DNA of 64,000 bases, taken from the sequence record PQ478073.1. The stretch is one strand, 5' to 3'. The stretch comes from a phage. Under the pieces are notes generated by a model. That model was not told the DNA's origin, did not search any database, and was given only the letters and a program-made list of their open reading frames with translations. Position 1 is the stretch's first letter. Every line of letters begins with the position of its first letter. Position numbers and translations under genes: made by a program. This document shows positions 1 to 52,290 of the stretch, piece by piece.

Positions 1-750
1 GAAGTTGGTGAATCTTTCCCATCATTTATGCATGAGATGTTCAACACTGGTATTGAAAAAGGTAAGATTGTTGGTGCAGACCTTGAGATGGTTGGTTCAC
101 GTGGCCTATTCTTGAAGAAAAAACGTTATGCAATTCTGAAGTACTGGGAAGATGGGTTCCGTAAAGATATTGATGGTAAACCAGGTGAAATCAAAGCGAT
201 GGGTCTTGAAATTAAACGCTCAGATACGCCAAAATACATCCAGAACTTCCTAGAAGAGACTCTAATCGCATTACTGGTAGGTGAGAGTGAACAACAGCTA
301 AAACAGCGTGTACGTGAGTTTAAGGACGTATTTAAGGATATGCCTGTACATGAAAAAGGTTCACCAAAAACTGTAAAAAACTACACTAATTTAGAGGCTG
401 AATATCAGCTAACTGGTAAGTGTAAAGTTGGTCACGTTCTTGCTGGTATCCAATGGAACCGCCTACGTGAAGTTTATGATGATAAATCTGTACCAGAAGT
501 AACGGATGGAACAAAAGTAATTGTCTGTAACTTAAAAGATAATCCTATGGGAATTAAAGCTGTTGGTTATCCAATTGACTGTGTTGAGTATCTACCAGAA
601 TGGTTCTTGGAACTACCATTTGATACTGAAAAAATGGAAGAGATTGTTCTAACTAAAAAATTAGAGAATATTTTTGGTATTTTGGATATGGATATTGGTA
701 TTCATGAAAAAAGTACTGCGTCAGTAAACAATGGATTCTTCACTTGGTAA
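1..750 (+). CDS. 43: DNA polymerase, family B (T4 gp43-like), C-terminal part; 5' end upstream of window
   Basis: Frame open from base 1; KKKRYA (KKRY motif of B-family polymerases) and T4 gp43-like C-terminal region; stop 748-750. Confidence 0.8.
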   Translation, partial: EVGESFPSFMHEMFNTGIEKGKIVGADLEMVGSRGLFLKKKRYAILKYWEDGFRKDIDGKPGEIKAMGLEIKRSDTPKYIQNFLEETLIALLVGESEQQLKQRVREFKDVFKDMPVHEKGSPKTVKNYTNLEAEYQLTGKCKVGHVLAGIQWNRLREVYDDKSVPEVTDGTKVIVCNLKDNPMGIKAVGYPIDCVEYLPEWFLELPFDTEKMEEIVLTKKLENIFGILDMDIGIHEKSTASVNNGFFTW

Positions 751-1301: not shown

Positions 1302-2033
1302 ATGGATCTACGCAACGTACTACGTGACCTCGTAAACACAACCAGTGGTATTGACTTCTCTTGTATTGCAGTAAGCAGTGAAGACCGTGGTGAAGGACAA
1401 CGTGTATATCTAGAAGCGTACACAGATGACCGAACTCTTGTAATGCGAGCATATACTAAAGAAGATGTTCCTGAAGTTCAGGGTCGTTTTGGCTTAGGTA
1501 ATCTAGGTCTTCTTCAGGGTCTAATGTCTCTAAAAACATACAGTACCGAAGGAACCACAATCACATCAAATGTTAAAGATGGTTCAGTTAAAAGTCTGGC
1601 ATTTAAATCTGAAGATGCAAGCACTACATTTATGGTACAAGCTGAAAAACTTATTCCAGTTCAACCACGTTTTCATGAACAACCATATGACGTACAGGTT
1701 ATTCCTAGTGCAGCAAAAGTTCAGGAACTAAAGAGTTTTTCTGGTGTATTTAAATCTTTTAGTTCTCTTGTAACTCCGTATACTGAAGGCGACACCCTAT
1801 ACTTTCACGTTGGTGAGAAAAACAAAAGTAACCACGTTGGTTCTCTAGCTTTTTCTAAAACTGAAGGTGAATTAGGTCTTGGTTTTGGTTATAATATTGA
1901 TCGCGTACTTCAAGCATTATCTCGCGTATCTAATGCCGAATCAGTATCACTTGGTATTACTAAAACTGGTATGCTAAATGTAACACTAGATACTGGAATT
2001 GCAGTATACAAATTTTACGTAACAGGCTGCTAA
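1302..2033 (+). CDS. 45: sliding clamp (T4 gp45-like)
   Basis: 243 aa; N-terminal NTTSGIDF and GNLGLLQGLMSL region resemble T4 gp45 (recalled from memory); GGAG RBS at 1288-1291. Confidence 0.7.
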   Translation: MDLRNVLRDLVNTTSGIDFSCIAVSSEDRGEGQRVYLEAYTDDRTLVMRAYTKEDVPEVQGRFGLGNLGLLQGLMSLKTYSTEGTTITSNVKDGSVKSLAFKSEDASTTFMVQAEKLIPVQPRFHEQPYDVQVIPSAAKVQELKSFSGVFKSFSSLVTPYTEGDTLYFHVGEKNKSNHVGSLAFSKTEGELGLGFGYNIDRVLQALSRVSNAESVSLGITKTGMLNVTLDTGIAVYKFYVTGC

Positions 2034-2041
2034 TATAAATA
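2034..2041 (+). promoter_or_regulatory. T4-late-like promoter box TATAAATA
   Basis: Exact TATAAATA directly after clamp stop. Confidence 0.4.
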
Positions 2042-2043
2042 AC

Positions 2044-2062
2044 GGGGAACACTATGTTCCCC
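2044..2062. terminator. hairpin GGGGAACA-cta-TGTTCCCC (weak T-tract)
   Basis: 8 bp perfect stem; same arms recur at 44895 and 51646. Confidence 0.4.
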
Positions 2063-2097
2063 AAATTAGTTTGATTTAAAAAGTAAAGGAATACAAA

Positions 2098-2304
2098 ATG
2101 CCATTATATACATATCGTTGTGAAAAAGAAGAATGCAAACATAGCATGGAAAAAATTGTTAAAATTGCAAATCGTGATGAACCTCATGATTGTCCTAAAT
2201 GTAATGGTGAAAAAACTATGAAGTTGGAAGTGTTCACTCCAGGTGATAAGGGTGCTAATCTTTATTTCCGTGGAAAATGGTTTGCAAATACTGGAGGTTA
2301 CTGA
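2098..2304 (+). CDS. zinc-ribbon protein (FmdB-like CxxC...CPxC)
   Basis: YRCEKEEC ... CPKCNG motifs; AAGGA RBS. Confidence 0.55.
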   Translation: MPLYTYRCEKEECKHSMEKIVKIANRDEPHDCPKCNGEKTMKLEVFTPGDKGANLYFRGKWFANTGGY

Positions 2305-2305
2305 T

Positions 2306-2605
2306 ATGAAAATTAAAATGATTAATGATTACGTTCTTGTTCGACAAATTGAAGCACAGAATAAAAGTACTGGTGGTATTATTCTAGGTAATGTTGAACC
2401 ACCATGTATTGGGATGGTAATTTCCGTTGGTCCAGGTAAAATTCTTCCGAACGGACAACTTGCAGAACATAATATTAAAGAAGGTGATATGGTTGTGTTT
2501 GGTCGTTCATCTTTGAACACACCACTGACTGAAGATCTTGGTGGCGGCGAAGATACATATTATGTAATGAAAATCGAAGAGATTTTTGGTAAGAAAAATG
2601 GCTAA
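2306..2605 (+). CDS. groES: co-chaperonin GroES (cpn10) homolog
   Basis: DYVLVRQIEAQNKSTGGIILG ... GMVISVGPG ... IKEGDMVVFG matches GroES pattern; GGAGG RBS 2293-2297; first ATG of longer track ORF is internal. Confidence 0.85.
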   Translation: MKIKMINDYVLVRQIEAQNKSTGGIILGNVEPPCIGMVISVGPGKILPNGQLAEHNIKEGDMVVFGRSSLNTPLTEDLGGGEDTYYVMKIEEIFGKKNG

Positions 2606-3323
2606 AAAGAAATTTATTCCATTTTGGATGGTCCCTGCTCACTGGGGACTTTCTGGAAAGGCAAAAGAGATAGCTAAAGCATACTACTACAATGATGATT
2701 ATGAAGCTGATATGAAAGTTGCTGAATTGACATATCTAACTCCATATGAAGTTGAAGTGGCCCAATTGGATATTAAAAAGAAATATAGCGTAATTGGAGA
2801 TTTGGAATATCTAATTGCTGTACTTGATGTTGAACTAAAATATTCTAAAATTACTCGTGAACAGTATGATGTTAAAGTTCTTGATGCAAAACTAAGTATT
2901 GGAGTTATTACAGAAAAAGAATATGATATGGAAATCATTGAGTTAATGCCAGAAGGTGATGAAAAAAGGCTTAAGGCTATTGAATTTGCATATCGTTACG
3001 ATGAAATCACACAAAGTGAATATTCTAAGGAAATATACACACTTCGTAAAGAACCTTGGATTGATTTGGATGTTGTTCTTGATCCTGAAACTAATGAAGT
3101 TGAGTTTGTATTTGACTATAATGAATATTTCTGGAAAAAGTTGAAAGCTGAAGGTCATCCAGGAAATGATGAAGAAGAAATTATCGATAACTTTGTGAGA
3201 GACTTGGGGCGTAAACTTGCTACGGATGATTTCAGTGATGATTACGACACAAAGCTGGTGAGTGCGAACGAAGGATTAGACAAGCTACCTGGTTTGCCTG
3301 AAGGATTTCGTTCATATAGATAA
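2598..3323 (+). CDS. hypothetical protein (241 aa)
   Basis: First ATG of TTG-initiated track ORF; followed by bidirectional terminator. Confidence 0.55.
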   Translation: MAKKKFIPFWMVPAHWGLSGKAKEIAKAYYYNDDYEADMKVAELTYLTPYEVEVAQLDIKKKYSVIGDLEYLIAVLDVELKYSKITREQYDVKVLDAKLSIGVITEKEYDMEIIELMPEGDEKRLKAIEFAYRYDEITQSEYSKEIYTLRKEPWIDLDVVLDPETNEVEFVFDYNEYFWKKLKAEGHPGNDEEEIIDNFVRDLGRKLATDDFSDDYDTKLVSANEGLDKLPGLPEGFRSYR

Positions 3324-3330
3324 CATATAA

Positions 3331-3362
3331 AAAAAGGAGAGCAAATGCTCTCCTTTTCTTTT
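3331..3362. terminator. bidirectional rho-independent terminator
   Basis: A-tract, GGAGAGC-aaat-GCTCTCC stem, T-tract; between convergent genes. Confidence 0.8.
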
Positions 3363-3370
3363 GAAAAATA

Positions 3371-4060
3371 TTAAACCAATGCTGGGATGTATTGGAAAAG
3401 TTTAACACCGAAATCACCTGCTGCATCAGCAGATTGGGAACGTAGGTAAACTTCGGTAACACCATCTTTAGCAAGTAGTGGAACACCAGTTAGATCATCA
3501 ATTAGTAGACGGCCTTCTTCGGATTCAGTACTTGGTACACCTTGTGGTGATTTAAGATCTTTGTTAAAGACACCAGCACGTTCAACTAGGAAGGTAACAA
3601 CAGAAGCATCAGCAATACTAACTGAACCTGCACTCAATACACCATCAGGTGCGTTGGTGAAACCAGTAACTGGAAATACTTCAAGACCATTACCTGCGAT
3701 GTTAGAGGTAGCGATGATAACCGCACGTTGTTGAACAACATCGACAATACGTTTAACGTTAGTTTGTGCTGCATAAGATGCATTGTAATCAGCTTCTAGT
3801 GTGCCAAGAACAAATGCAGTTCCATCAATACGTTTGATACCTTTATCATTTAGATATGCTAGAATTTCTTCTGGAATATCAGTGTTTAGAAAACGTTGTA
3901 GACCAGCATAAGAAGAAACTGCACCAGTAACTAGAACGTTTACGTTTCCTAGCTTACTGATAGCAATGGATGCTAGGGCGTTAGTGCCACAAAAGTAACC
4001 TAGAATACGTTCAAAGGAATAACCATTGATACGTTCAAAAGAAGTATTAGTATATGACAT
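3371..4060 (-). CDS. putative late/virion protein, tandem paralog 1 (229 aa)
   Basis: Shares QQRAV..ATS and ER.GVFNK blocks with adjacent ORF; AGGAGGA RBS; Ala/Gly/Val/Thr-rich; higher GC than neighbours. Confidence 0.6.
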   Translation of the reverse strand: MSYTNTSFERINGYSFERILGYFCGTNALASIAISKLGNVNVLVTGAVSSYAGLQRFLNTDIPEEILAYLNDKGIKRIDGTAFVLGTLEADYNASYAAQTNVKRIVDVVQQRAVIIATSNIAGNGLEVFPVTGFTNAPDGVLSAGSVSIADASVVTFLVERAGVFNKDLKSPQGVPSTESEEGRLLIDDLTGVPLLAKDGVTEVYLRSQSADAAGDFGVKLFQYIPALV

Positions 4061-4074
4061 AATCTATCCTCCTA

Positions 4075-4674
4075 TTATAGTTGAACAGGAAGAGCAGCAC
4101 GTACTTTAATTGCTACAGCAGTAGATGCACCTGCATCACCAACACCATCAGTACCTTGACTTACGAAAGTTTTGGTACGGAAAACTTTAGCTTGAGCGAT
4201 AGACTTAGCTAGGTCAACAGTTGGATCAACTGGAGCAGGACATGCTGAACCAGGACGAACTTCTTGCTTGTTAAATACGTCTTGACGTTCACAGATGAAA
4301 GTCAATGCAACAGAATTAGCACCACCTGCTACATCAGCACCACTAGTGCCGAACGCAACTACGTTTGGATTAGCATTTTTGAAATCAGCAGGAATAACAA
4401 CTTCTGAATCAAGAGCTAGTAGAGAGGTAGTAACTAGAACTGCACGTTGTTGTAGTAGTTGGGTAACCATGAATAGGTTATATTGAGCATTACTTAGAGC
4501 AGTTTGATACGCTTCAGCTTGAACATCAGAACCGTCAGAAGTAACTTTGGTAGTACCTAGTTCAACATCAGTTGGTAGATCGATTACGATGGTAACGAAA
4601 CCGTTATTACCACCCCACCATTCGCGAGCAACGCTAGACATACCATAGTTACGGTTAAAAGAATTAAGACTCAT
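4075..4674 (-). CDS. putative late/virion protein, tandem paralog 2 (199 aa)
   Basis: Paralog of 3371-4060; AAGGAGA RBS 5 nt upstream of ATG. Confidence 0.6.
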   Translation of the reverse strand: MSLNSFNRNYGMSSVAREWWGGNNGFVTIVIDLPTDVELGTTKVTSDGSDVQAEAYQTALSNAQYNLFMVTQLLQQRAVLVTTSLLALDSEVVIPADFKNANPNVVAFGTSGADVAGGANSVALTFICERQDVFNKQEVRPGSACPAPVDPTVDLAKSIAQAKVFRTKTFVSQGTDGVGDAGASTAVAIKVRAALPVQL

Positions 4675-4835: not shown

Positions 4836-10093
<5,258 letters not shown>

Positions 10094-12968: not shown

Positions 12969-13787
12969 ATGACAAAATTAAATGAGTTTTTATCAAATGT
13001 AGCAGTTCTAGATACTGAAACTACTGGGGTTGAGAGTGAAGATGATATTATTGAATTTAGTATCTCGTATCCACATACTTCACATGAAAACATTGATACT
13101 ATTGATAACTATACATTGAGATACAAACCCTTGAAAGATATTCCACCAGAGGCATCTGCTGTGCACTTTATCAGTACTGAGGATGTAGCTAATTGTGTTG
13201 GGTATAAAGATGATTTAGATAACATTGATGCACTTATGGGATGCCGTAAGTATTTTGTTGGTCATAATGTACAATTTGACCGTAGAATGATGGTAGATAA
13301 CGAATATAAATATCGTAACTCAATTTCACAGTACTTACTTGATGAAAATAAATGGATTTGTACCCTTCGTCTTGCTAAGAAAATGTTCGCAGAAGATATT
13401 GAATTTAAAAACTTAACTCTAAGTTATTTGTGGTATAAGTTTGGATGTTATCGTGATGTTCATCGACCTGTTAATGCACACGCAGCAAAAGACGATGTGT
13501 TTATGTGTTATCAGGTTCTAATCAAATTAGTTGAAATTGCAATCGAACGTGGACATATCGAACCTAATGGTGATATTGGTGAGCAAATTGTAACTTTCTG
13601 CAACACACCAATGCGTTATCAATTCATGCCATTTGGTAAACACAAAGGTGTGCCAATGAGTACAGTTCCATTGAATTACATTGAATGGATGATTACTAAT
13701 AGTGACATTTTAGATGCAAGTAACCCTAACTGTGATAAAGATTTAGTATATACATTTGAGTACGAATATAATACTCGAACTAATTAA
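12969..13787 (+). CDS. DEDD-family (DnaQ-like) 3'-5' exonuclease
   Basis: Exo I LDTETTG, Exo II GHNVQFD, Exo III H..D motifs. Confidence 0.7.
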   Translation: MTKLNEFLSNVAVLDTETTGVESEDDIIEFSISYPHTSHENIDTIDNYTLRYKPLKDIPPEASAVHFISTEDVANCVGYKDDLDNIDALMGCRKYFVGHNVQFDRRMMVDNEYKYRNSISQYLLDENKWICTLRLAKKMFAEDIEFKNLTLSYLWYKFGCYRDVHRPVNAHAAKDDVFMCYQVLIKLVEIAIERGHIEPNGDIGEQIVTFCNTPMRYQFMPFGKHKGVPMSTVPLNYIEWMITNSDILDASNPNCDKDLVYTFEYEYNTRTN

Positions 13788-15780: not shown

Positions 15781-16278
15781 ATGAACGTATTAACACCTGA
15801 AAATAATTCTTTTGACATGGATTTAGTAACAGAACATATCCCTGAAGAAATGTATTGTGTTTTGGATCTAAGCCCAAATGGTGAATCTGATTTTTATTTT
15901 AGACATATTCTAAACACCGTATCATTTAATAGTATTAGTGCTGATCTTCAAATTGGTGAAAAGATTATTCAAGTGCCTCTAGGATGGCAAATTATGTTAG
16001 GTGATGAAGAAACTGGTATGGTTGAGATGTGTACAATTGAAAACATTCTTAACATGAAAGAACCAAAAGCTTTTGTTTACAATCCTATCCGTTCAATGTA
16101 TCCTAAGTTTGAACCAGTCAAAGTACTACGTGTATTTGCATTAACTACAAAGTGGCAGATACCAATGTTACCTAAAAAGAATTTACTATGCGTCCCACTA
16201 CATAGTGGTGAAAATCCACCATGTGTGTACTTTGCAGATGAAAACGAAAAAATTCAAGATTTGTATCTAGGAGTATAA
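15781..16278 (+). CDS. hypothetical protein (165 aa)
   Basis: AAGGAG RBS. Confidence 0.55.
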   Translation: MNVLTPENNSFDMDLVTEHIPEEMYCVLDLSPNGESDFYFRHILNTVSFNSISADLQIGEKIIQVPLGWQIMLGDEETGMVEMCTIENILNMKEPKAFVYNPIRSMYPKFEPVKVLRVFALTTKWQIPMLPKKNLLCVPLHSGENPPCVYFADENEKIQDLYLGV

Positions 16279-16282
16279 AATA

Positions 16283-17128
16283 GTGTTTGATTTCAGTGAT
16301 ATTAAAAATAAGTCGGTCGATGATGATGAAAAACCAACACAGCATTCTTTTTCTATTGCTGAATTTCTAAAACACATTGACCGTGCTGATTATAAGTACT
16401 ATAATGACATGACCGAAAAAGAACGAAAAGAGTTTACTCCATATACTGTTTTGCGATGGGTAAGCTCTTTAGATGATTCGTTACAAGTAACCTACCCTAG
16501 TAGTAAAGTTGAAAGTGTATTTGGAAAATGGAAATCTGGTGGTAAAGAAGCACTGACTGAACTAGTTACTGAATTAAAGTCTTCAGGGACAAATATTTCA
16601 TCAGTAACTAAGTACTGTCATAGTGATTATGATTGGCGTATTAAATTTGCAGTCCAATCAAAAGATGACGCACAAAAATTAATATCCTCAATGGTCGAAT
16701 TTGGCGTATCAGGTTCCGAAATTGTTTCATTAGTAGATACTGAAGTTGTCAAATACCAACTTATTATGCTAAATGATATGGTTAATGATGGATTTTGGGA
16801 TATGAAAGAACATCCAGAATTAGTATATCAGCTTATGTGTTCAGTCCATGATATGATTGGTGGACAAGAAATGCCACGTAACTGGTTAAACTTTTCTAAG
16901 AATTTCAAAAAGGCAAATAACGAATTATTTGAGTTAATTAAAAGCTCACAACCTGATACTATATCTACTCAAATGAATGAAGATGAGTACAAAATTGTTC
17001 TATTGCAGTATGATAAAAAAACATTTGAGACATTTCTTGACAATAATGGTTTTCAAGATAATGAAAAGAAATCTATGATGAAATTGTTTAAAGAAGAATG
17101 TAAAAAATATGGCAAAGAAATCAAGTAA
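16283..17128 (+). CDS. hypothetical protein (281 aa, probable GTG start)
   Basis: AGGAG 10 nt upstream of GTG 16283; first ATG only at about 16412. Confidence 0.45.
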   Translation: MFDFSDIKNKSVDDDEKPTQHSFSIAEFLKHIDRADYKYYNDMTEKERKEFTPYTVLRWVSSLDDSLQVTYPSSKVESVFGKWKSGGKEALTELVTELKSSGTNISSVTKYCHSDYDWRIKFAVQSKDDAQKLISSMVEFGVSGSEIVSLVDTEVVKYQLIMLNDMVNDGFWDMKEHPELVYQLMCSVHDMIGGQEMPRNWLNFSKNFKKANNELFELIKSSQPDTISTQMNEDEYKIVLLQYDKKTFETFLDNNGFQDNEKKSMMKLFKEECKKYGKEIK

Positions 17129-17819
17129 TAAAGTATATACCTGTAGATTTTGTGATCGTGAATTTAAACGTGAAGAAACTGTAAACACACATAAATGTAT
17201 AAAACGTGACCGATACGAAGACCGCCAAAGCCGCCAGATGATGGAGGCTTTTCGTATATATATGCAATTTATGGAATTGAATAAGTTCCCATTTAAAAAA
17301 GGCGTAGAGCCTTTTATTGCTTTTATAAAGTCAAAGTACTTTAATGATTTTTATAGTTTTGCCGAATACTATTTGAATAATAGAGATATTATTAATGTGG
17401 ACGAGTTTGTAAAGTACTTGATTATCAATAACAAACCAATCACGGAATGGAGTACATATAAAGCAAAAGATGAATGGATATTAAAAACAATTCGTGCCGA
17501 GCACCCAAAAGAAGCAATTGCAAGAAGTGTTATCTCACTGGTTGAATGGGCTGAAAATTTGAATGTACAATGGAATACTTTCTTTGAAAATGTAAGTTCT
17601 GCCCGTGCAATTGCATGGATTGAGAGTGGTAAAATTTCACCTTGGATTATCTGGCTTGCTCCTAAAAAAAGTACTAATAAGTTTTTTAAAAAACTATCAA
17701 ACTCAGAAATTGAATATATACTTAAATACATCGATCCAAGTTATTTTGAAATCAAAACTATAAAATACAAAAAGGATTGTGATGAAATTAAGATTATGCT
17801 ATGTGAGGCAGGATTATGA
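17109..17819 (+). CDS. hypothetical protein with N-terminal C2H2-like zinc finger
   Basis: CRFCDREFKREETVNTHKC. Confidence 0.5.
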   Translation: MAKKSSNKVYTCRFCDREFKREETVNTHKCIKRDRYEDRQSRQMMEAFRIYMQFMELNKFPFKKGVEPFIAFIKSKYFNDFYSFAEYYLNNRDIINVDEFVKYLIINNKPITEWSTYKAKDEWILKTIRAEHPKEAIARSVISLVEWAENLNVQWNTFFENVSSARAIAWIESGKISPWIIWLAPKKSTNKFFKKLSNSEIEYILKYIDPSYFEIKTIKYKKDCDEIKIMLCEAGL

Positions 17820-18145
17820 ATGGAAAAAGTATATATAATAAAATACCAGAAGGGTATGTACCTGTACCTAAAGAACAAAAATCAAAACAAATATCTCTAC
17901 TTAGACAAGGATCTATTACTGAAATAACTTTAGATGGTAAAACATTTCAAGTTCATGATCCTGCTCGTATTGAAAAAATTATTTCTTTGGTAGAAAGACA
18001 CGAAGAACGCTTTTTCAGTTTAAGTCAAGAATTGGCAAAGACAAAACAAAATTGTAGATTATTAGAGAATCAAATATCAACTTTGACTAATACAGTTAAA
18101 CAGTTACAGGAGCAAATAAAAAATGCAGGATTCGACCGATTCTAA
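17816..18145 (+). CDS. hypothetical coiled-coil protein (109 aa)
   Basis: ATGA overlap with upstream gene; GAGGCAGGA RBS. Confidence 0.5.
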   Translation: MNGKSIYNKIPEGYVPVPKEQKSKQISLLRQGSITEITLDGKTFQVHDPARIEKIISLVERHEERFFSLSQELAKTKQNCRLLENQISTLTNTVKQLQEQIKNAGFDRF

Positions 18146-18761
18146 ACATTATAGAAAAGCCCGAACTGATATTGACATTGACTTCAAGGATAGTAAAAGC
18201 GTAATCGCTAAACTTCCATGTGTGCGAAGTACTGAAAAAATTACGGAGGATGGTTTAATCCCCCATAATAGTGGTGTTCATTTTGATAATATACCTATTG
18301 ATCCAATCACTGGATTGGCAAGTATACAATATAAAGAAGCTGAAAGGTTAGGGTATCAAAAAGTTGATATTCTTTCACAGTCAGCTTACATGTATGTTCG
18401 TGATAGAGAGCATTTAAAAGAACTAATGAATCAGGAACCAAATTGGGATCTATTGTTAGAACCCGAAATTGTAGAACATCTATCGCAAATTAAAAAACAT
18501 GTAACTTTATTAAATGTATGGAAGCCTAAATCTATAGACGAACTAGCAATGTTTATTGCAATGATTCGCCCAGGAAAAAGGCAGTGCCAAAGTATGAACA
18601 CATGGGACGAAGTTAAAGCTACCATATGGGATTATAGTACTATAGGCACTGACCAAGCAGGAAATAAATTACGATATTTCAAAAAGCCACATGCTTACGC
18701 ATATAGCTTAATGATTGTTGTACAACTAAATGCTTTAGTTGAACATCTTACTTCTTCTTAA
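18123..18761 (+). CDS. DnaE-like (C-family polymerase palm) protein, C-terminal module of a split mini-DnaE
   Basis: TDIDIDF (DnaE PDFDVDF), HNSGVHF (HAGGVVI), AMIRPG (ALFRPGP), FKKPHAYAYSLM (FNKSHSAAYALV); motifs recalled, not searched. Confidence 0.5.
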   Translation: MQDSTDSKHYRKARTDIDIDFKDSKSVIAKLPCVRSTEKITEDGLIPHNSGVHFDNIPIDPITGLASIQYKEAERLGYQKVDILSQSAYMYVRDREHLKELMNQEPNWDLLLEPEIVEHLSQIKKHVTLLNVWKPKSIDELAMFIAMIRPGKRQCQSMNTWDEVKATIWDYSTIGTDQAGNKLRYFKKPHAYAYSLMIVVQLNALVEHLTSS

Positions 18762-19101
18762 GAGCCACATTACGACGCTTGATGCGTTTCTGTGGCAAAT
18801 TGCTTAAAGAAACTACTGGACCACATACGAAATTCACCGACGGTGTATCGAATCTCTGTGTGTACGGTTCAAATTTCTCCATCTCTTCTTGAAAGAATAG
18901 ACAAACTGGAATGGTTCTATTACTTTGCCACCACCAATCGTGTGCTATACCTAACAATTCGTCTTGCATTGAATCATCCATATCATCGAAACAGTAAAGA
19001 GTTGTATACTGTTTGCTTTTGATTTTGATGATACCAACAAACGTTTTACCATCATACTGGATTACAGTAATGAATGGTGGAATAGTGTTATATTGATTCA
19101 T
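18748..19101 (-). CDS. hypothetical protein (117 aa), Trp-rich
   Basis: Minus ORF with higher GC, convergent with 18123-18761; an imperfect hairpin (18764-18796) lies inside its 3' end, so uncertain. Confidence 0.35.
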   Translation of the reverse strand: MNQYNTIPPFITVIQYDGKTFVGIIKIKSKQYTTLYCFDDMDDSMQDELLGIAHDWWWQSNRTIPVCLFFQEEMEKFEPYTQRFDTPSVNFVCGPVVSLSNLPQKRIKRRNVALKKK

Positions 19102-19121
19102 ATTAGTTCCATAAATATTAG

Positions 19122-19133
19122 TATAAATTTATA
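19122..19133. promoter_or_regulatory. bidirectional late-promoter-like TATAAATT boxes
   Basis: TATAAATTTATA reads TATAAAT on both strands between divergent ORFs. Confidence 0.35.
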
Positions 19134-19158
19134 CCTATTATTTATGGAAGGAAAAACT

Positions 19159-20136
19159 ATGGCTCATCACGGCGTGTTTATGTACCCTTATAATCAGGAA
19201 GTATCATTGGGCAATTTTAATATGCCATATAGCAATGAAAAACTAACTATATATAGAGGGGCAAATAATAATTTATCTTTTACTGTTCACAACGCTGATG
19301 GAAAATATACTTTATTGAAAGATAATGAATATCTTACATTTATGATTTTTGATGCAAGAAATAATACTAAACTATTTGATGTTGTATTAGAAAAACAAGA
19401 ACCCAGTTGGTTATCAGAAAGTGGACAAGCAAGACAAACATTAGGAAATAAAAAGAAAGTATATTATGGATGTATTGTTCCAGCAGGAGTTATTCAAGAT
19501 ACCAGTCCTGGTTCAAAATATAGATGGAGCATTACTAAAGTAACAATGGATGGTTCACTTATAGAACCAACACAATATCTATACACAGGGATGAACTTTG
19601 AGGCATCAGCAGAGCTAATAATTTCAGACCAAGCAGCACCTGTATTTGTCCCCAGTACTGAAATATCAGTTAATAAAAATCCAGCATGGACAACTATAAA
19701 GCGTTTATATCATGAACCAATTGGAAATGGTATGATTGGTGAATATGATATTCTCGCATCAACTCCACTACCAGCACAAATGCAGTTTGGATTAGTAGAT
19801 GGATTAAGTAGTATTGCAATCTATTTTGATAAATTTATTGGTAGAATACAGCTACAAGGGTGCTTGTGTAACAACGTACCTAATGATAATGAAAACTATA
19901 AATGGTTTATTATTAAATTAGATGGAAAGGATTATATTGAAAATGGAATTGATTCAGAAGGTTTTCCAAAAGAACTTGACGGAATACAAGCATTTAATTT
20001 TAAAGGAAATTATATGTGGTTACGTTTGGTGGTTGCTATTCATCCCAAAATTGTTCCAGTACCATATGACTATGCTGCTGTCCGAAAAGTGTATGACCCT
20101 TTCCTAACAGTACCTAAAATTTTGATACGTAGATGA
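19159..20136 (+). CDS. hypothetical protein (325 aa), possibly late/structural
   Basis: GGAAGGA RBS before ATG 19159; track ORF starts at upstream TTG. Confidence 0.5.
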   Translation: MAHHGVFMYPYNQEVSLGNFNMPYSNEKLTIYRGANNNLSFTVHNADGKYTLLKDNEYLTFMIFDARNNTKLFDVVLEKQEPSWLSESGQARQTLGNKKKVYYGCIVPAGVIQDTSPGSKYRWSITKVTMDGSLIEPTQYLYTGMNFEASAELIISDQAAPVFVPSTEISVNKNPAWTTIKRLYHEPIGNGMIGEYDILASTPLPAQMQFGLVDGLSSIAIYFDKFIGRIQLQGCLCNNVPNDNENYKWFIIKLDGKDYIENGIDSEGFPKELDGIQAFNFKGNYMWLRLVVAIHPKIVPVPYDYAAVRKVYDPFLTVPKILIRR

Positions 20137-20153
20137 GACAAAACTAGAAGGTG

Positions 20154-20162
20154 TGCTATAAT
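20154..20162 (+). promoter_or_regulatory. extended -10 promoter TGcTATAAT
   Basis: TGTGCTATAAT family, 30 nt upstream of primase ATG. Confidence 0.5.
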
Positions 20163-20191
20163 CATTTGTAAGAAAAGACAAGGATTAACTT

Positions 20192-21247
20192 ATGAACGCT
20201 GTACAAAACATAATGGCACAAATTATGAATGATCCAGTACCTGCGATTGGTACATGGTCACAACACAACTGTCCAGCTTGTGTGTTCAGAGGACATTCAA
20301 GGCCGGATACAAAGCACCGTGGTAATCATATGTTCAATGCAGATGGTTCCGTTTCATATAACTGCTTTAACTGTAGTTTAAAAACTGGTTGGCAACCAGG
20401 AAAATATATGAGCAAAGATATGGAGTCTTTGCTCATTTCTTTTGGTGCACAAGATAAAGAAATAGAATTAGTTAAGTTTTATATTAAAGAAATGGTTGAC
20501 AGCGGTGATTTTGCTGCACAAGAAACTGTTGCATCAAAATTGTATGACCGAGTAACAGTACGTGATTTGCCATCAAATGCAAAAACATTTTGGGAATGGG
20601 CTTCTTTACCTGAAGATAAAATTCCACAAGAATTTATAAGTGTTTTGCATAATGTCAATGAAAGAAACCCATATCTGTTAGACTTAGAATTATATTGGTC
20701 ACCTAATAAAGAACATAAAATGTATGACAGATTTATTATTCCATATTTCATGAATGGTAAAATTATTGGTTATACTGCACGACATAAATTAAAAGATCCT
20801 GGAAGTACATACAGGTTCATAAATCAAGTAAGTACTAATATACTATATAACTATGATTTATTAAAAGATGAACGAATAAAAACAATTTTAGTATGTGAGG
20901 GTCCGTTAGACGCAGCATTAATGGGTGGTGTATCTGCTAATAACTTTAAATTATCAAACGTACAGATTGATGTATTAAAAGATGCACAGCAAAAAGGTAA
21001 AAAAATAGTTATTGTTCCAGATAGAGATAAAGATGGATTAATAACTATAGACCAAGCACTTGAAAATGGATTCAGTGTTTCCTTCCCAGACTTTGGTGCT
21101 GTAAGAGAAGGTAGTACAATACGTCATATCAAAGACTTTGAAGAAGCTTGTGCACGATTTGGTAGGTTATTTTGTTTACAATTAATACATGATAGTATAG
21201 TAGATGAGCCATTTTATATTAAAGCTCAAACGGATAAATGGATGTAA
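20192..21247 (+). CDS. 61: DNA primase (T4 gp61-like; zinc-binding plus TOPRIM)
   Basis: CPAC...CFNC zinc ribbon; TOPRIM VCEGPLD; AAGGA RBS. Confidence 0.85.
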   Translation: MNAVQNIMAQIMNDPVPAIGTWSQHNCPACVFRGHSRPDTKHRGNHMFNADGSVSYNCFNCSLKTGWQPGKYMSKDMESLLISFGAQDKEIELVKFYIKEMVDSGDFAAQETVASKLYDRVTVRDLPSNAKTFWEWASLPEDKIPQEFISVLHNVNERNPYLLDLELYWSPNKEHKMYDRFIIPYFMNGKIIGYTARHKLKDPGSTYRFINQVSTNILYNYDLLKDERIKTILVCEGPLDAALMGGVSANNFKLSNVQIDVLKDAQQKGKKIVIVPDRDKDGLITIDQALENGFSVSFPDFGAVREGSTIRHIKDFEEACARFGRLFCLQLIHDSIVDEPFYIKAQTDKWM

Positions 21248-21269: not shown

Positions 21270-22790
21270 ATGATTCAAAGCACAGTGGATGTGAAACAAT
21301 ATGGGATTAATGCACAACAATACTTATTATCTCAGATTTTCAGTAATCCTGATTTATATGTACGTTGTAAAAATATCCTTAAACCAGAATATTTTGATAA
21401 AACATTTCATGAAAGTATTCAATACGTGCATGATTATGCTGCAAAATATAGTTCATCACCTACTTTGAAAGATATTGAAGTTAAAGGTGGTTATCAATAC
21501 GATCAATATGAAGTTCAAGAATTACATAAACAATCAGTACTTGATACCTGTGGTGAATTTTGTCGCCATAAAGCATTAGCTTTAGCCGTTGAAAAAGGAA
21601 TGGAACTTGTCCATCAGAAAAAATATGGTGGAATCGAAGAACTAATCCGAGAAGCAATGTTGGTAACGGTACAGAATGAGTTAGGTTTGGATATTTTTGA
21701 AAACCCTGAAGATACAATCCGCTCACTCAGTACAATGCAAGGATCATTTAAGAGTGGTTGGGAAACTCTTGATTACAAACTTTTCGGTGGATTTGGGCGT
21801 AGAGAGTTAGAGATCTTTGCTGCTGCATCAGGTGGTGGTAAATCAGTAGTACTGCAAAATTTAGCAGTTAACTTTGCGAAAGCTGGAATGAATGGTGCAT
21901 ACATTTCACTTGAACTAGCTGAAGAGTTGGTTGCTGTTCGTATCTATGGTATGATGACTGAATCAAAACTCAGTAACGTAAAAAATGAAGCTGAAAAGAT
22001 TGGATTTGCTGTTAAAGTTGAAGGTAAAAACAGTGGTATGTTGCGTATTAAACGCTTACCTGAATCTGTAACAACCACAGACGATATTGAAAGTTATCTA
22101 CGTGAATTACAAATTAAGATGGAAATCAAACTTGATTATGTATGCGTGGACTATTTGGATCTATTAACTTCTAATCGTCTTGGACCAAATGATAAATCCA
22201 ATACATTTACTAAAGATAAATTTGTATCAGAAGAATTACGTGCTCTTGCATCCAAAATGGATTTGACTGTTTTCACTGCATCTCAGTTTAACCGTAGTGG
22301 TATGGACGAAGATAAGAAAAGTCAAAGTCAGATTGCTGGTGGTATTTCAAAAATTTATACTGCTGATAACGTAATTTATATTGAAGCAAAAAAAGAAACT
22401 GGCGAACTATGGTTTGATTTCCAAAAAACACGTAACAGTAGTGCAGTAGGTTCCCGTTTGCGTATGTCTTATGATATTGATTCATTGAGAGTTCTTGACC
22501 ATGCAACTACAGTACAACAAATGGAAACCGAAGGTAATGGATTCCGTCACAGCGGTGTTTCTAAGATTGGTGGAGGGAACATGGCGTTACCACCCAGCAC
22601 TATGCAAACATTACGTCATTCGCTTTCTGGTGCAGCTAAATCACCATCTGTGCAACCTGACAATACAGTAACACTAAATACTGATAGTGCTCCTAACTCT
22701 ACGACACAAAACGAAATACAGAATCCACAGACACATGCTGGTACTGATCGTGTTCATGCAATGAAGCAATGGTTAAATCAAAGGAAATGA
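21270..22790 (+). CDS. 41: replicative DNA helicase (DnaB family, T4 gp41-like)
   Basis: Walker A SGGGKS, DnaB-like C-terminal domain; disordered C-terminal extension. Confidence 0.9.
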   Translation: MIQSTVDVKQYGINAQQYLLSQIFSNPDLYVRCKNILKPEYFDKTFHESIQYVHDYAAKYSSSPTLKDIEVKGGYQYDQYEVQELHKQSVLDTCGEFCRHKALALAVEKGMELVHQKKYGGIEELIREAMLVTVQNELGLDIFENPEDTIRSLSTMQGSFKSGWETLDYKLFGGFGRRELEIFAAASGGGKSVVLQNLAVNFAKAGMNGAYISLELAEELVAVRIYGMMTESKLSNVKNEAEKIGFAVKVEGKNSGMLRIKRLPESVTTTDDIESYLRELQIKMEIKLDYVCVDYLDLLTSNRLGPNDKSNTFTKDKFVSEELRALASKMDLTVFTASQFNRSGMDEDKKSQSQIAGGISKIYTADNVIYIEAKKETGELWFDFQKTRNSSAVGSRLRMSYDIDSLRVLDHATTVQQMETEGNGFRHSGVSKIGGGNMALPPSTMQTLRHSLSGAAKSPSVQPDNTVTLNTDSAPNSTTQNEIQNPQTHAGTDRVHAMKQWLNQRK

Positions 22791-48828: not shown

Positions 48829-49140
48829 ATGTTTAATCCGTTTTTTGACCCGTCTGGAATGACGGAAAAAGAACTACAGTTAAAAATTAATGAACAGTCA
48901 ATGCGTTTAACTTCTGCTCGTGCTGCTGGCCTAAGCGACATGATTATTGGTAATATGCAAACTGTCTTAAATCAATGTTATGCTGAACTAGAACTTCGCC
49001 AAGGACAAAAAGAAAAAACTGTTTATGACGAAGAAGACCCATGTATCTTCGATATGGATTCATATCTAACTGACAACGAAGAGGCCCAGAAGAAGAAAAA
49101 TGAAAGTACAAGGAAACAGATTTATAAGTCCCAATGGTGA
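48829..49140 (+). CDS. hypothetical protein (103 aa)
   Basis: AGGAGG RBS. Confidence 0.5.
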   Translation: MFNPFFDPSGMTEKELQLKINEQSMRLTSARAAGLSDMIIGNMQTVLNQCYAELELRQGQKEKTVYDEEDPCIFDMDSYLTDNEEAQKKKNESTRKQIYKSQW

Positions 49141-49618
49141 TGTGAAATGTAATCTTAACGCAGTTGTTTATGCAATCAATTGCGGTGCAGATATCCAGTA
49201 CTTACAATTGCAGGAAATTGATGAACCTGAAAGGTTGAAATTCAATGATAACTGTAAAAAATTTGGCTTAGAACAACGTATGCTGGATTATACAATTGAG
49301 CATGATAAAAATCATGAACTGTGGCGATATGATCCAGTATACGACAATATAAATCTGCGTGACTTTTTCTTACAAAAATGCACATCCGATGAAGCACGAA
49401 AACGTGTTGAGTATGAACTTGATTTATATGAATATTATAATATGACAAAGCTACTAAGATGTATGATATGGCTTGTTGATTATATGGAAGAAAATGAGAT
49501 CTTTTGGGGTCTAGGTCGTGGAAGCTCTGTTGCATCATACTGTTTGTTTTTGATTGGACTACATATGGTAGATTCATTGAAGTACGAACTTGATGTTAAC
49601 GAATTTTTGAAATGGTAG
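49100..49618 (+). CDS. DnaE-like protein, N-terminal module of a split mini-DnaE (no PHP domain)
   Basis: IFWGLGRGSSVASYCLFLIGLHMVDSLKYELDVNEFL aligns to DnaE [34 protein letters not shown]; ORF ends just before where the catalytic DxD would follow. Confidence 0.5.
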   Translation: MKVQGNRFISPNGDVKCNLNAVVYAINCGADIQYLQLQEIDEPERLKFNDNCKKFGLEQRMLDYTIEHDKNHELWRYDPVYDNINLRDFFLQKCTSDEARKRVEYELDLYEYYNMTKLLRCMIWLVDYMEENEIFWGLGRGSSVASYCLFLIGLHMVDSLKYELDVNEFLKW

Positions 49619-50710: not shown

Positions 50711-51664
50711 ATGACCACACTATGGACTGAAAAATATCGCCCACAATCAATGGAAGATTATGTATCAAAAAACGATGCACTACGCCAGAAAATGGAAGAA
50801 TGGATTAAGACTGGTGACATTCCACATATTGGGTTTTTTGGCCCAGCAGGAACTGGTAAAACATCTGCGATCAAAGTACTAATTAATGGACTAGTTCAAA
50901 ATGGACACCTTGATCCAAGTGATGTGACCACGCTTAACATGTCCGATGAAGGCATTGATGCTGTTCGTGACAAAATCGATGCCGCAGCAAAGCTATCATG
51001 TTTTGGTAGATATCGTATTTTTGTTCTTGAAGAAATGGAGCAGATGAACCACAAAGCACAAGGTAGTTTGAAACGTGTAATGGAAGACTATCATGAAAAT
51101 GCTCGCTTTATTTTAACAAGTAACGAACCACATAAAATTCAAAAACCTATCATTTCTCGTGTTCAAGTTATTACAATCGAAAAGCATGATATGGAACAAT
51201 TCATGACTCGAATTTATAATATTCTTCTAGCAGAAGGTGTTGATTTGAGTAGTGATGATAGTGTTGAACAAGTTCAAAAGTACATCAATGCTTCCTATCC
51301 TGATTTCCGTAAAACACTAAACGTATTGCAAAGTTCAGTTGTTGATGGTAAGCTAGTAAAACTTGAAGATAGTATTGAAAATTCAGCAGGGTATCGTACT
51401 GCAATTGTTGAAGCATTAAAGGCAGGCAACATTCGCCAAATGCGTGAACAAATTGTACAAAATATCCCTGATGATGAGATGGATGCATTTTTCTCTTACT
51501 TGTACAGAAATGCTGAAATGTTCAGTACTGATGAAATCACACTGATGAAGATTAAAGTTAAAATTCGTGATGCAGTTGTTAAGCAAGCAACCGTATCAGA
51601 TCGTGAAATGAATCTTAGTGCTTTACTGTGTGAAATTGACCTAATTTGTTCGGGGAACATGTAA
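50711..51664 (+). CDS. 44: clamp loader large subunit (T4 gp44-like, RFC-type AAA+)
   Basis: EKYRP box, Walker A GPAGTGKTS, PDFRKT block; AAGGA RBS before ATG 50711. Confidence 0.85.
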   Translation: MTTLWTEKYRPQSMEDYVSKNDALRQKMEEWIKTGDIPHIGFFGPAGTGKTSAIKVLINGLVQNGHLDPSDVTTLNMSDEGIDAVRDKIDAAAKLSCFGRYRIFVLEEMEQMNHKAQGSLKRVMEDYHENARFILTSNEPHKIQKPIISRVQVITIEKHDMEQFMTRIYNILLAEGVDLSSDDSVEQVQKYINASYPDFRKTLNVLQSSVVDGKLVKLEDSIENSAGYRTAIVEALKAGNIRQMREQIVQNIPDDEMDAFFSYLYRNAEMFSTDEITLMKIKVKIRDAVVKQATVSDREMNLSALLCEIDLICSGNM

Positions 51665-52290
51665 TGAAGCCACGTTGTATAGTTTTTGATTGTGATGAAG
51701 TTCTATTGGACCATATGGGTATGCTTTCTGAGTTTGTAAAACAAACTTATAATATCACACCATCAACACCATACCCATTAGAATATGATTTATCAGACTG
51801 GTTGGGTGTTCCTCAACCTGAAGTTAAAAAGATTCTTGAACAGTTCAACCAACAATCATATTTGTTTGGGTTGTTAAAGCCAGTCGAACCAAATACAGTT
51901 GATATTGTACAAGAGCTACGTGATCGTTTTCATAAAGAAAAATTCGTAGTACTCACAAAATGTGGTAAAAAAGGCTATGGTGAAGTTTTACGAAATGTAA
52001 ATCTAATGCGTGAATTTGGTGAAAACTGCTTTGATGAGATTATTATCATAGAAATGAATGAATCAAAGAAAGAAGCATTAGAGGATTTACAAACACGATA
52101 TGATGTAAAACTAATGATTGATGATTATATCAATAATATTGAAACTGCTATGGGTCTTGGTATTCCATCAGTTATGATGGGATGTTCTCATAATACTATG
52201 TATAAGAATCATAGTGGTTTTGAATATATCGAAAACTGGACAGAACTTAGACTGAAAATTTATTCAGTACTAGGTAAATATTACAAATAA
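51664..52290 (+). CDS. HAD-superfamily hydrolase (possible nucleotidase)
   Basis: HAD motif I FDCDEVLLD; TAATG overlap with gp44 gene. Confidence 0.6.
   Translation: MKPRCIVFDCDEVLLDHMGMLSEFVKQTYNITPSTPYPLEYDLSDWLGVPQPEVKKILEQFNQQSYLFGLLKPVEPNTVDIVQELRDRFHKEKFVVLTKCGKKGYGEVLRNVNLMREFGENCFDEIIIIEMNESKKEALEDLQTRYDVKLMIDDYINNIETAMGLGIPSVMMGCSHNTMYKNHSGFEYIENWTELRLKIYSVLGKYYK

Follow-up and report, generated by a model that had tools for sequence, protein, structure and literature searches.

Two small open reading frames (ORFs) of a jumbo phage, located 30.3 kb apart in a stretch of 64,000 nucleotides from sequence record PQ478073.1 (the whole stretch is referred to below as the window), probably each encode one half of a minimal catalytic core of a C-family (DnaE-like) DNA polymerase. 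The downstream ORF (ORF-N, 49100-49618, + strand, 172 aa) would provide the N-terminal half of the polymerase palm, and the upstream ORF (ORF-C, 18123-18761, + strand, 212 aa) its C-terminal half together with reduced fingers. Both ORFs were found at the coordinates and with the lengths given in an original prediction, made from the letters of the window and its translated ORFs, which had proposed a shortened DnaE-like palm split into two genes. Profile, profile-profile and structure searches placed both ORFs in the DnaE/PolC core, as had been proposed, and support the view that ORF-N and ORF-C are consecutive, non-overlapping pieces of it.

The original prediction knew of no described equivalent, but this does not hold: Iyer, Anantharaman, Krishnan, Burroughs & Aravind 2021 (Viruses 13:63, PMC7824862) had already described a split minimal Pol III alpha from group 2.2 jumbo phages, comprising an N-terminal NTP-binding and a C-terminal Mg2+/template-binding protein that are encoded by distant genes and accompany a family-B DNA polymerase (PolB). 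The feature is therefore already known in silico; its observation is confirmed in this study and its interpretation is supported. We add structural confirmation, residue-level mapping, a synteny survey and a 141-kb carrier phage, as well as fused single-chain forms, including a GC-rich form linked to a replicase gene. The fusions, the replicase-linked form, the non-jumbo carrier and the varying gene order and spacing go beyond the published description.

Identification of the two halves

ORF-N matched the Pfam family PF07733 (DNA_pol3_alpha) over model positions 16-95 with an E-value of 1.9e-9 and 37.9 bits (gathering score 23.9), and is a full-length member of phrog_11127, which is labelled 'DNA polymerase'. 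In an hhalign comparison based on an alignment of 22 sequences, residues 100-172 were aligned with residues 322-395 of E. coli DnaE (E 1.6e-5), which bears out the claim that the end of ORF-N matches the DnaE segment preceding the catalytic motif PDFDVDF. This region contains the GS nucleotide-binding motif G-x-GRGSS, in which G137, G139, R140, G141, S142 and S143 are invariant among the 22 homologues; G139-R140-G141-S142-S143 aligns with GRGS 361-364 of DnaE, the G-[GS] motif of Pol-beta-like palms. Residues 1-95 form a family-specific extension with no Pfam match. At the other end, the C-terminus NEFLKW aligns with FERFLN (ending at residue 393) of DnaE and terminates 1-2 residues past the DnaE-homologous segment, and a stop directly after EFLK was found in every ORF-N homologue. 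In tblastn searches the weaker matches of ORF-N reached full-length DnaE genes of Bacillus and Streptomyces phages (E about 1e-4). The best matches of the family profile in the PDB were all DnaE, with weak E-values (0.06-0.4), and a single-sequence phmmer search of the PDB returned only noise. The AlphaFold2 model built from the family alignment had a predicted local distance difference test score (pLDDT) of 83, and its top 9 Foldseek matches were all DnaE/PolC.

ORF-C is likewise a full-length member of a PHROG family labelled 'DNA polymerase'. All of the motifs quoted in the original prediction are present and each aligns with the DnaE motif named there, i.e., TDIDIDF (residues 15-21) with PDFDVDF (400-406; D16-I-D18-I-D20-F against D401-F-D403-V-D405-F), HNSGVHF (48-54) with HAGGVVI (511-517), which is the HxxGV strand, AMIRPG (146-151) with the finger motif ALFRPG (636-641), and FKKPHAYAYSLM (185-196) with FNKSHSAAYALV (756-767). 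In addition, KVDIL (80-84) corresponds to KFDFL around D555 of DnaE. The three catalytic aspartates D16, D18 and D82 are thus equivalent to D401, D403 and D555, and they are invariant in 19 diverse homologues. The finger motif FKKxH (F185-K-K187-P-H190) aligns with FNKSH at position 756, and the K and H of this motif, the RPG and the HxxGV are retained and invariant across the ORF-C homologues. Elsewhere the fingers are much reduced: the LRRAMGKK segment is apparently deleted, YQEQ is represented at best by W-D/E-E-V, and the match to the Pfam finger model (E 0.045) is below the cut-off. In place of the thumb region (DnaE ~433-510) there is a hairpin turn.

Sequence comparison alone does not secure the assignment of ORF-C. 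Residues 72-152 were placed on DnaE 545-642 by hhalign using a 19-sequence alignment, with an E-value of 0.029 and a probability of 1.7%; the family profile found DnaE first in the PDB with a weak E-value of 0.94; and single-sequence phmmer against the PDB gave only noise. A fold search and fused homologues were therefore needed, and the assignment rests on the collinearity of the motifs, the predicted fold and the fused homologues. The AlphaFold2 model from the family alignment had a pLDDT of 91, and its top 10 Foldseek matches in the PDB were all Pol III alpha, with probabilities of 0.66-1.0, whereas the next matches had probabilities of at most 0.04. For both ORFs the top matches of the predicted folds were only DnaE/PolC, on which the models can be superposed.

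Tiling of the DnaE core and missing parts

A residue map was constructed from the translation of E. coli dnaE and a MAFFT alignment. On this map ORF-N and ORF-C together tile DnaE residues ~322-780 without gap or overlap, ORF-C beginning ~5 residues beyond the end of ORF-N, and the break point falls between the GS motif and the first metal-binding (DxD) strand, inside the Pol-beta-like nucleotidyltransferase fold. The hidden Markov models of both families also matched a 1166-aa phage DnaE collinearly, N at 324-398 and C at 510-638 and 736-763. Several parts of bacterial DnaE have no counterpart, in agreement with the predicted absence of the PHP domain, the fingers extension and the OB fold from both ORFs. 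No PHP domain was matched by Pfam in either ORF, and the homology of ORF-N begins only at DnaE ~322; the thumb, the beta-clamp-binding/HhH domain and the OB fold are not present, the end of ORF-C corresponding to about residue 780; and most of DnaE 643-755, including LRRAMGKK, is without counterpart in ORF-C.

The cyanobacterial DnaE, whose two pieces are joined after translation by a split intein, provides a precedent for a further explanation, namely that ORF-N and ORF-C are joined in the same way. The junction leaves no room for this: EFLKW at the end of ORF-N comes right after the homologous segment, ORF-C has only 15 residues before the DxD, DnaE 322-406 is tiled with no insert, and fused homologues (see below) join the halves without extra sequence. 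No Hint or intein Pfam match was obtained in either ORF. A split intein is thus refuted by the sequence, its probability being negligible, and the predicted absence of intein signatures, with two polypeptides as the product, stands.

Natural single-chain forms

Natural fusions of the N and C parts are rare and surfaced only in an exhaustive search of cluster representatives. P0302, P0390 and P0391 are single ORFs of 375-376 aa which contain a complete N and a complete C part in the order of DnaE, and they are carried on four independent AT-rich contigs (L168, L170, L171 and L172; 25-27% GC) from different samples. In P0302 the PF07733 match is continuous through the N-C junction. These fusions occupy an ORF-C-type locus, and the antisense gene and the structural-protein gene that come after ORF-C in the window also come after them. 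Since their closest relatives are split forms (~65% identity in the C half), the fusion is probably secondary. A DNA_methylase (PF00145) gene immediately precedes the fusion on two of the AT-rich contigs.

A different single chain, P0381 (336 aa), was found on a contig of 59% GC (L169; JGI 3300080032, positions 1516-4181) and is without the first ~95 residues of ORF-N, i.e., the N-terminal extension. Its start and the stop codon of a 552-aa gene overlap; the latter gene encodes a PF03090 'Replicase' domain and a helix-turn-helix. The surrounding genes (PG_binding, DUF4238 and methyltransferase) are unlike those of the phage loci. A search of the PLSDB plasmids for counterparts of this replicase-linked form gave none and returned only full-length dnaE genes. 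The natural fused forms would be convenient single-chain constructs for biochemical work.

Conservation and distribution

Cluster-level relatives were counted for each ORF in a word-indexed database, which gave 785 for ORF-C and 176 for ORF-N; in the exhaustive search of representatives clustered at 50%, 515 were found by the ORF-C profile, and the IMG/VR database contained at least 585 loci for each gene. The hosts of the carriers belong to the Gamma-, Beta- and Alphaproteobacteria. In many GenBank records the two genes already bear the label DNA polymerase or Pol III alpha. Among homologues down to 32-45% identity, neither the GS motif nor the three aspartates nor the K/H of the fingers vary, and together with the PF07733 score of ORF-N (37.9 bits against 23.9) this invariance shows that the similarity on which the original prediction was based is not due to chance.

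Both ORFs are very short compared with a 1160-aa DnaE, they stand among many genes of unknown function, and the CBB genome paper of 2017 (PMC5259590) referred to the N piece as 'truncated', all of which might suggest decaying, non-functional remnants of a full-length phage dnaE broken by rearrangement. The same split point, lengths and invariant catalytic residues, however, recur in hundreds of homologues (stop-to-stop ORF lengths in 160 related loci were 154-310 aa for N and 189-223 aa for C), and the AlphaFold models are confident. The nonsynonymous divergence (dN) was 0.12-0.20 with saturated synonymous divergence (dS), giving a dN/dS of at most about 0.1 for both genes, which are therefore under strong purifying selection. 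Decay, to which we assign a very small probability, is excluded by this conservation and by the dN/dS.

The co-occurrence in related phages that the original prediction had suggested checking is near perfect: across phage genera, 96 phage-database records contained ORF-C and 93 contained ORF-N (ORF-N cut-off E <= 1e-10), and the per-genus record counts of the two genes are equal except for one partial Klebsiella record. The tiling of DnaE, the natural fusions, the PF07733 match across the junction in P0302 and these near-equal record counts suggest that the two genes form one functional unit.

Gene order and spacing

In this genome ORF-C lies upstream of ORF-N, and the 'reversed order' noted in the original prediction is therefore real here, but it is not a general trait. 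The order C then N, with a spacing of 31-44 kb, is found in Asteriusvirus, RaK2/K64-1, GAP32 and PA5oct, whereas N comes first in Ralstonia phage RsoM2USA (4 kb from C), in Stenotrophomonas phage RAS14 (14 kb) and in one IMG/VR contig (~163 kb). Because the order differs between lineages, the reversed order is lineage-specific and probably without mechanistic meaning. Both halves also occur in Alishewanella phage Slickus01 (L087, 141.6 kb; N at 8527-9042 and C at 19884-20492, 11 kb apart with N first), a sub-jumbo phage, so the split mini polymerase is not specific to jumbo phages. The module is restricted neither to jumbo genomes nor to the split state.

A synteny survey was carried out on 160 IMG/VR loci with 10-kb flanks, and 75 divergent loci per gene were used to assess the conservation of blocks. 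The ORF-C block consists of SSB, UvsX, UvsY, a UvsW-like helicase, two unknowns, C, an antisense unknown, primase and DnaB, and is conserved at about 40% identity, while the ORF-N block consists of an unknown, a GroES-like gene and a clamp loader. No adjacent or fused N-C pairs were observed within 10 kb in the 160 loci. This separation into distinct conserved blocks, 4 to ~163 kb apart, could be taken to mean that the two proteins act independently, for example as adaptors for other replisome proteins, without forming a joint enzyme. The break, however, lies within a single fold, so that each half is without either the nucleotide-binding loop or the metal ligands, and the co-occurrence of the genes and their independent natural fusions in DnaE order likewise speak for joint action. 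Independent action is accordingly very improbable, though not as improbable as decay.

Proposed mechanism

Because the break separates the GS motif from the DxD strand within the Pol-beta-like fold, an active site should not be able to form in either protein alone, and the two would have to associate. In the mechanism that we propose, ORF-N would contribute helices and the GRGSS loop that holds the triphosphate of the incoming nucleotide, and ORF-C would contribute the beta-strands with the three metal-binding aspartates and the cut-down fingers, which would form the nucleotide/template pocket. The halves would associate non-covalently by fold complementation, with no protein splicing, and the assembled enzyme of ~380 aa would perform Mg-dependent nucleotidyl transfer. 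As it is without the thumb and the clamp-binding parts, it may act as a distributive, low-processivity accessory polymerase beside PolB, the likely roles being primer extension, recombination-dependent replication and gap filling or repair. The analysis establishes the homology, the fold, the conserved catalytic residues, the co-occurrence and the occurrence of fused forms; heterodimerisation, catalytic activity and a specific role are what we infer. A role in replication is pointed to by the position of C in the block from SSB, UvsX, UvsY and the UvsW-like helicase to primase and DnaB, that of N beside the clamp loader, and the overlap of a fused form with the PF03090 gene. Bacillus DnaE extends primers and then hands off to PolC; a role in primer extension by analogy with it would be speculation.

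Several points weigh against a polymerase of this kind. The thumb and the HhH/clamp-binding domain, which hold the primer-template DNA in DnaE, are absent as judged from the alignments, and the LRRAMGKK finger motif appears to have been deleted. LRRAMGKK contacts the incoming deoxynucleoside triphosphate in DnaE and PolC. With the DNA-gripping domains and this motif missing, templated DNA synthesis is not assured. The sequence support for relating ORF-C to DnaE is weak when taken alone (E 0.045 for the Pfam finger model, E 0.94 for the profile search of the PDB and a probability of 1.7% in hhalign), and a literature search for biochemical or genetic studies of any member found none, only the in silico description of 2021.

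The missing LRRAMGKK and DNA-gripping parts (thumb, distal fingers and HhH/clamp-binding region) keep alive the main rival explanation, in which the two halves do form one nucleotidyltransferase that does not copy a template, and which would instead add nucleotides to DNA or RNA ends without a template, produce a nucleotide signal, or serve as a nucleotide-binding structural or regulatory component of the replisome. The Pol-beta-like fold is used by many non-templated transferases, and the phage already has a complete PolB including an exonuclease domain. On the other hand, the C-family-specific finger elements RPGK and FKKxHAxxY and the HxxGV strand are kept and invariant, the genes stand in replication and recombination blocks near primase, helicase and clamp loader, and one fused form is operonic with a replicase gene. 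Moreover, Pol X of African swine fever virus (ASFV) consists of palm and fingers only, yet is a real DNA polymerase (PMC11646218). We consider such a non-templated transferase or nucleotide-binding scaffold unlikely, although less so than independent action of the two proteins.

The preferred reading remains that of two halves of a single C-family catalytic core. Its strongest version, to which we give slightly less than an even chance, is that the two polypeptides together make up the smallest C-family DNA polymerase known to be active, a palm with reduced fingers of ~340-380 aa, which would also exist as a natural single chain; the GC-rich form, in an operon with a plasmid-type replicase, may be the polymerase of the element that carries it. 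If active, the enzyme would represent the minimal catalytic unit of a bacterial-type replicative polymerase and would bear on the origin of C-family polymerases; the active site of a nucleotidyltransferase could then be assembled from two parts of one fold that are encoded by separate genes. It would offer a tractable model for the ancestral bacterial replicase core, and would add a second, accessory polymerase to the T4-like replisome of phages that are very widespread and comprise hundreds of metagenomic lineages.

Comparison with known systems

A 3.2-kb stretch of the window (17000-20200) was 100% identical to Escherichia phage BAU.Micro_ELP-22, at least 99.7% identical to PBECO4, G17, phAPEC6 and Sharanji, and 98.7% identical to 121Q, which are Asteriusvirus jumbo phages of ~350 kb (PBECO4/121Q group). 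The window phage is thus an Asteriusvirus jumbo phage within group 2.2 of Iyer et al. 2021 (PMC7824862). It has the traits of that group, namely two standalone proteins, distant genes (30.3 kb) and a PolB with a T4-like replication core of gp32-type SSB, RFC-like clamp loader, DnaB and primase, and its split minimal Pol III alpha is the same thing, with nothing different in kind. Those authors suggested a cooperation with PolB in one-strand synthesis or repair. Earlier, a 172-aa 'truncated' Pol III alpha and a DnaQ-like epsilon had been noted in the CBB genome paper (PMC5259590), while these genes are not discussed in the PA5oct omics paper or in a 2026 survey of bacterial polymerases.

Bacterial DnaE and PolC (2HNH, 2HPI, 3E0D and 3F2B) are 1000-1450 aa in length, compared with ~380 aa in total here; relative to them the mini enzyme is without the PHP domain, thumb, distal fingers (LRRAMGKK), HhH/beta-clamp-binding domain, OB fold and tau-binding region, and its chain is interrupted within the palm. 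Full-length DnaE-like polymerases of SPbeta-like Bacillus phages, Streptomyces phages and group 3.2 jumbo phages are also phage-encoded members of the C family, but each of them is a single host-like chain of ~1100 aa that includes a PHP domain and serves as the main replicase of its phage, in contrast to the miniature accessory form beside PolB described here. The split DnaE of cyanobacteria is likewise encoded by two distant genes; there, however, intein fragments are spliced to a full-length chain, whereas here two polypeptides would remain. ASFV Pol X (174 aa, family X) is a viral, minimised palm plus fingers of the Pol-beta fold which functions in repair alongside a family-B replicase (summarised in PMC11646218). 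It differs in belonging to family X rather than C, in being a single chain and in having been experimentally characterised, and provides a functional analogy for a thumb-less mini enzyme.

Replication neighbourhood

According to the annotated record the window covers a replication, recombination and morphogenesis region, in which SSB, UvsX, UvsY, primase, DnaB and clamp loader are all present, forming a T4-like replication core beside PolB. The phage does have the full family-B polymerase of the original prediction, a protein of 1001 aa that matches DNA_pol_B_exo1 (E 3.8e-23) and DNA_pol_B (E 1.1e-21) in Pfam, with the refinement that only the last 750 nt of the gene lie inside the window (1-750, + strand, annotated coding sequence in OR699282.2) and the remainder lies upstream. 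PolB presumably serves as the main replicase, with the mini enzyme beside it. The window has 5 more bases than OR699282.2 somewhere in the interval 18761-49100, where the coordinate offset changes from 0 to +5, which represents a small indel relative to the closest database record.

In the region ~2-3.6 kb downstream of ORF-C are annotated a primase (20192-21247, + strand) and a DnaB-like helicase (21270-22790, + strand), whose homologues have the same offset and strand relative to ORF-C in 62/75 and 59/75 divergent loci, respectively. A scan for promoters and terminators around ORF-C showed no enrichment over shuffles and was not used. Directly after ORF-C, a 117-aa gene of unknown function (phrog_11637, 18748-19101, - strand) converges on it with a 14-nt overlap at the ORF-C 3' end; it is found on the opposite strand at this place in 74 of the 75 divergent loci, and the arrangement is also kept in the 141-kb phage Slickus01 and 3' of the fused single-chain genes. 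Its product has no Pfam match and could act together with the mini polymerase or regulate it.

Two conserved unknowns lie between the UvsW-like helicase and ORF-C, phrog_11279 (15781-16278) and phrog_11058 (17109-17819), with synteny kept in 59-69 of the 75 divergent loci. The phrog_11058 protein carries a zinc-finger-like C-x2-C...H-x-C motif at its N-terminus (CRFCDREFKREETVNTHKC), and both products are candidate replisome accessory factors. A DnaQ/RNase_T-type 3'-5' exonuclease (12969-13787; PF00929 E 6.7e-15) lies further upstream, with UvsY on one side and the UvsW-like helicase on the other; it is annotated as 'DNA polymerase exonuclease subunit' and has a short C-terminal match to QSregVF_b. 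Since no homologue of the exonuclease was found within 10 kb of ORF-C in the 75 divergent loci, it was rejected as a general epsilon-like partner. E. coli epsilon docks on the PHP domain, which the mini enzyme does not have.

On the ORF-N side, an RFC/gp44-like clamp-loader ATPase (50711-51664, + strand; Pfam DNA_pol3_delta2, AAA and Gp44_lid) lies ~1-2 kb downstream, and a homologue is found downstream of ORF-N in 51/75 divergent loci. It is followed by a 5'-deoxynucleotidase (51664-52290; NT5C/HAD, E 9e-9), the start of which is the last base of the clamp-loader stop codon (1-nt overlap) and which occupies this position in only 4 of the 75 divergent loci.

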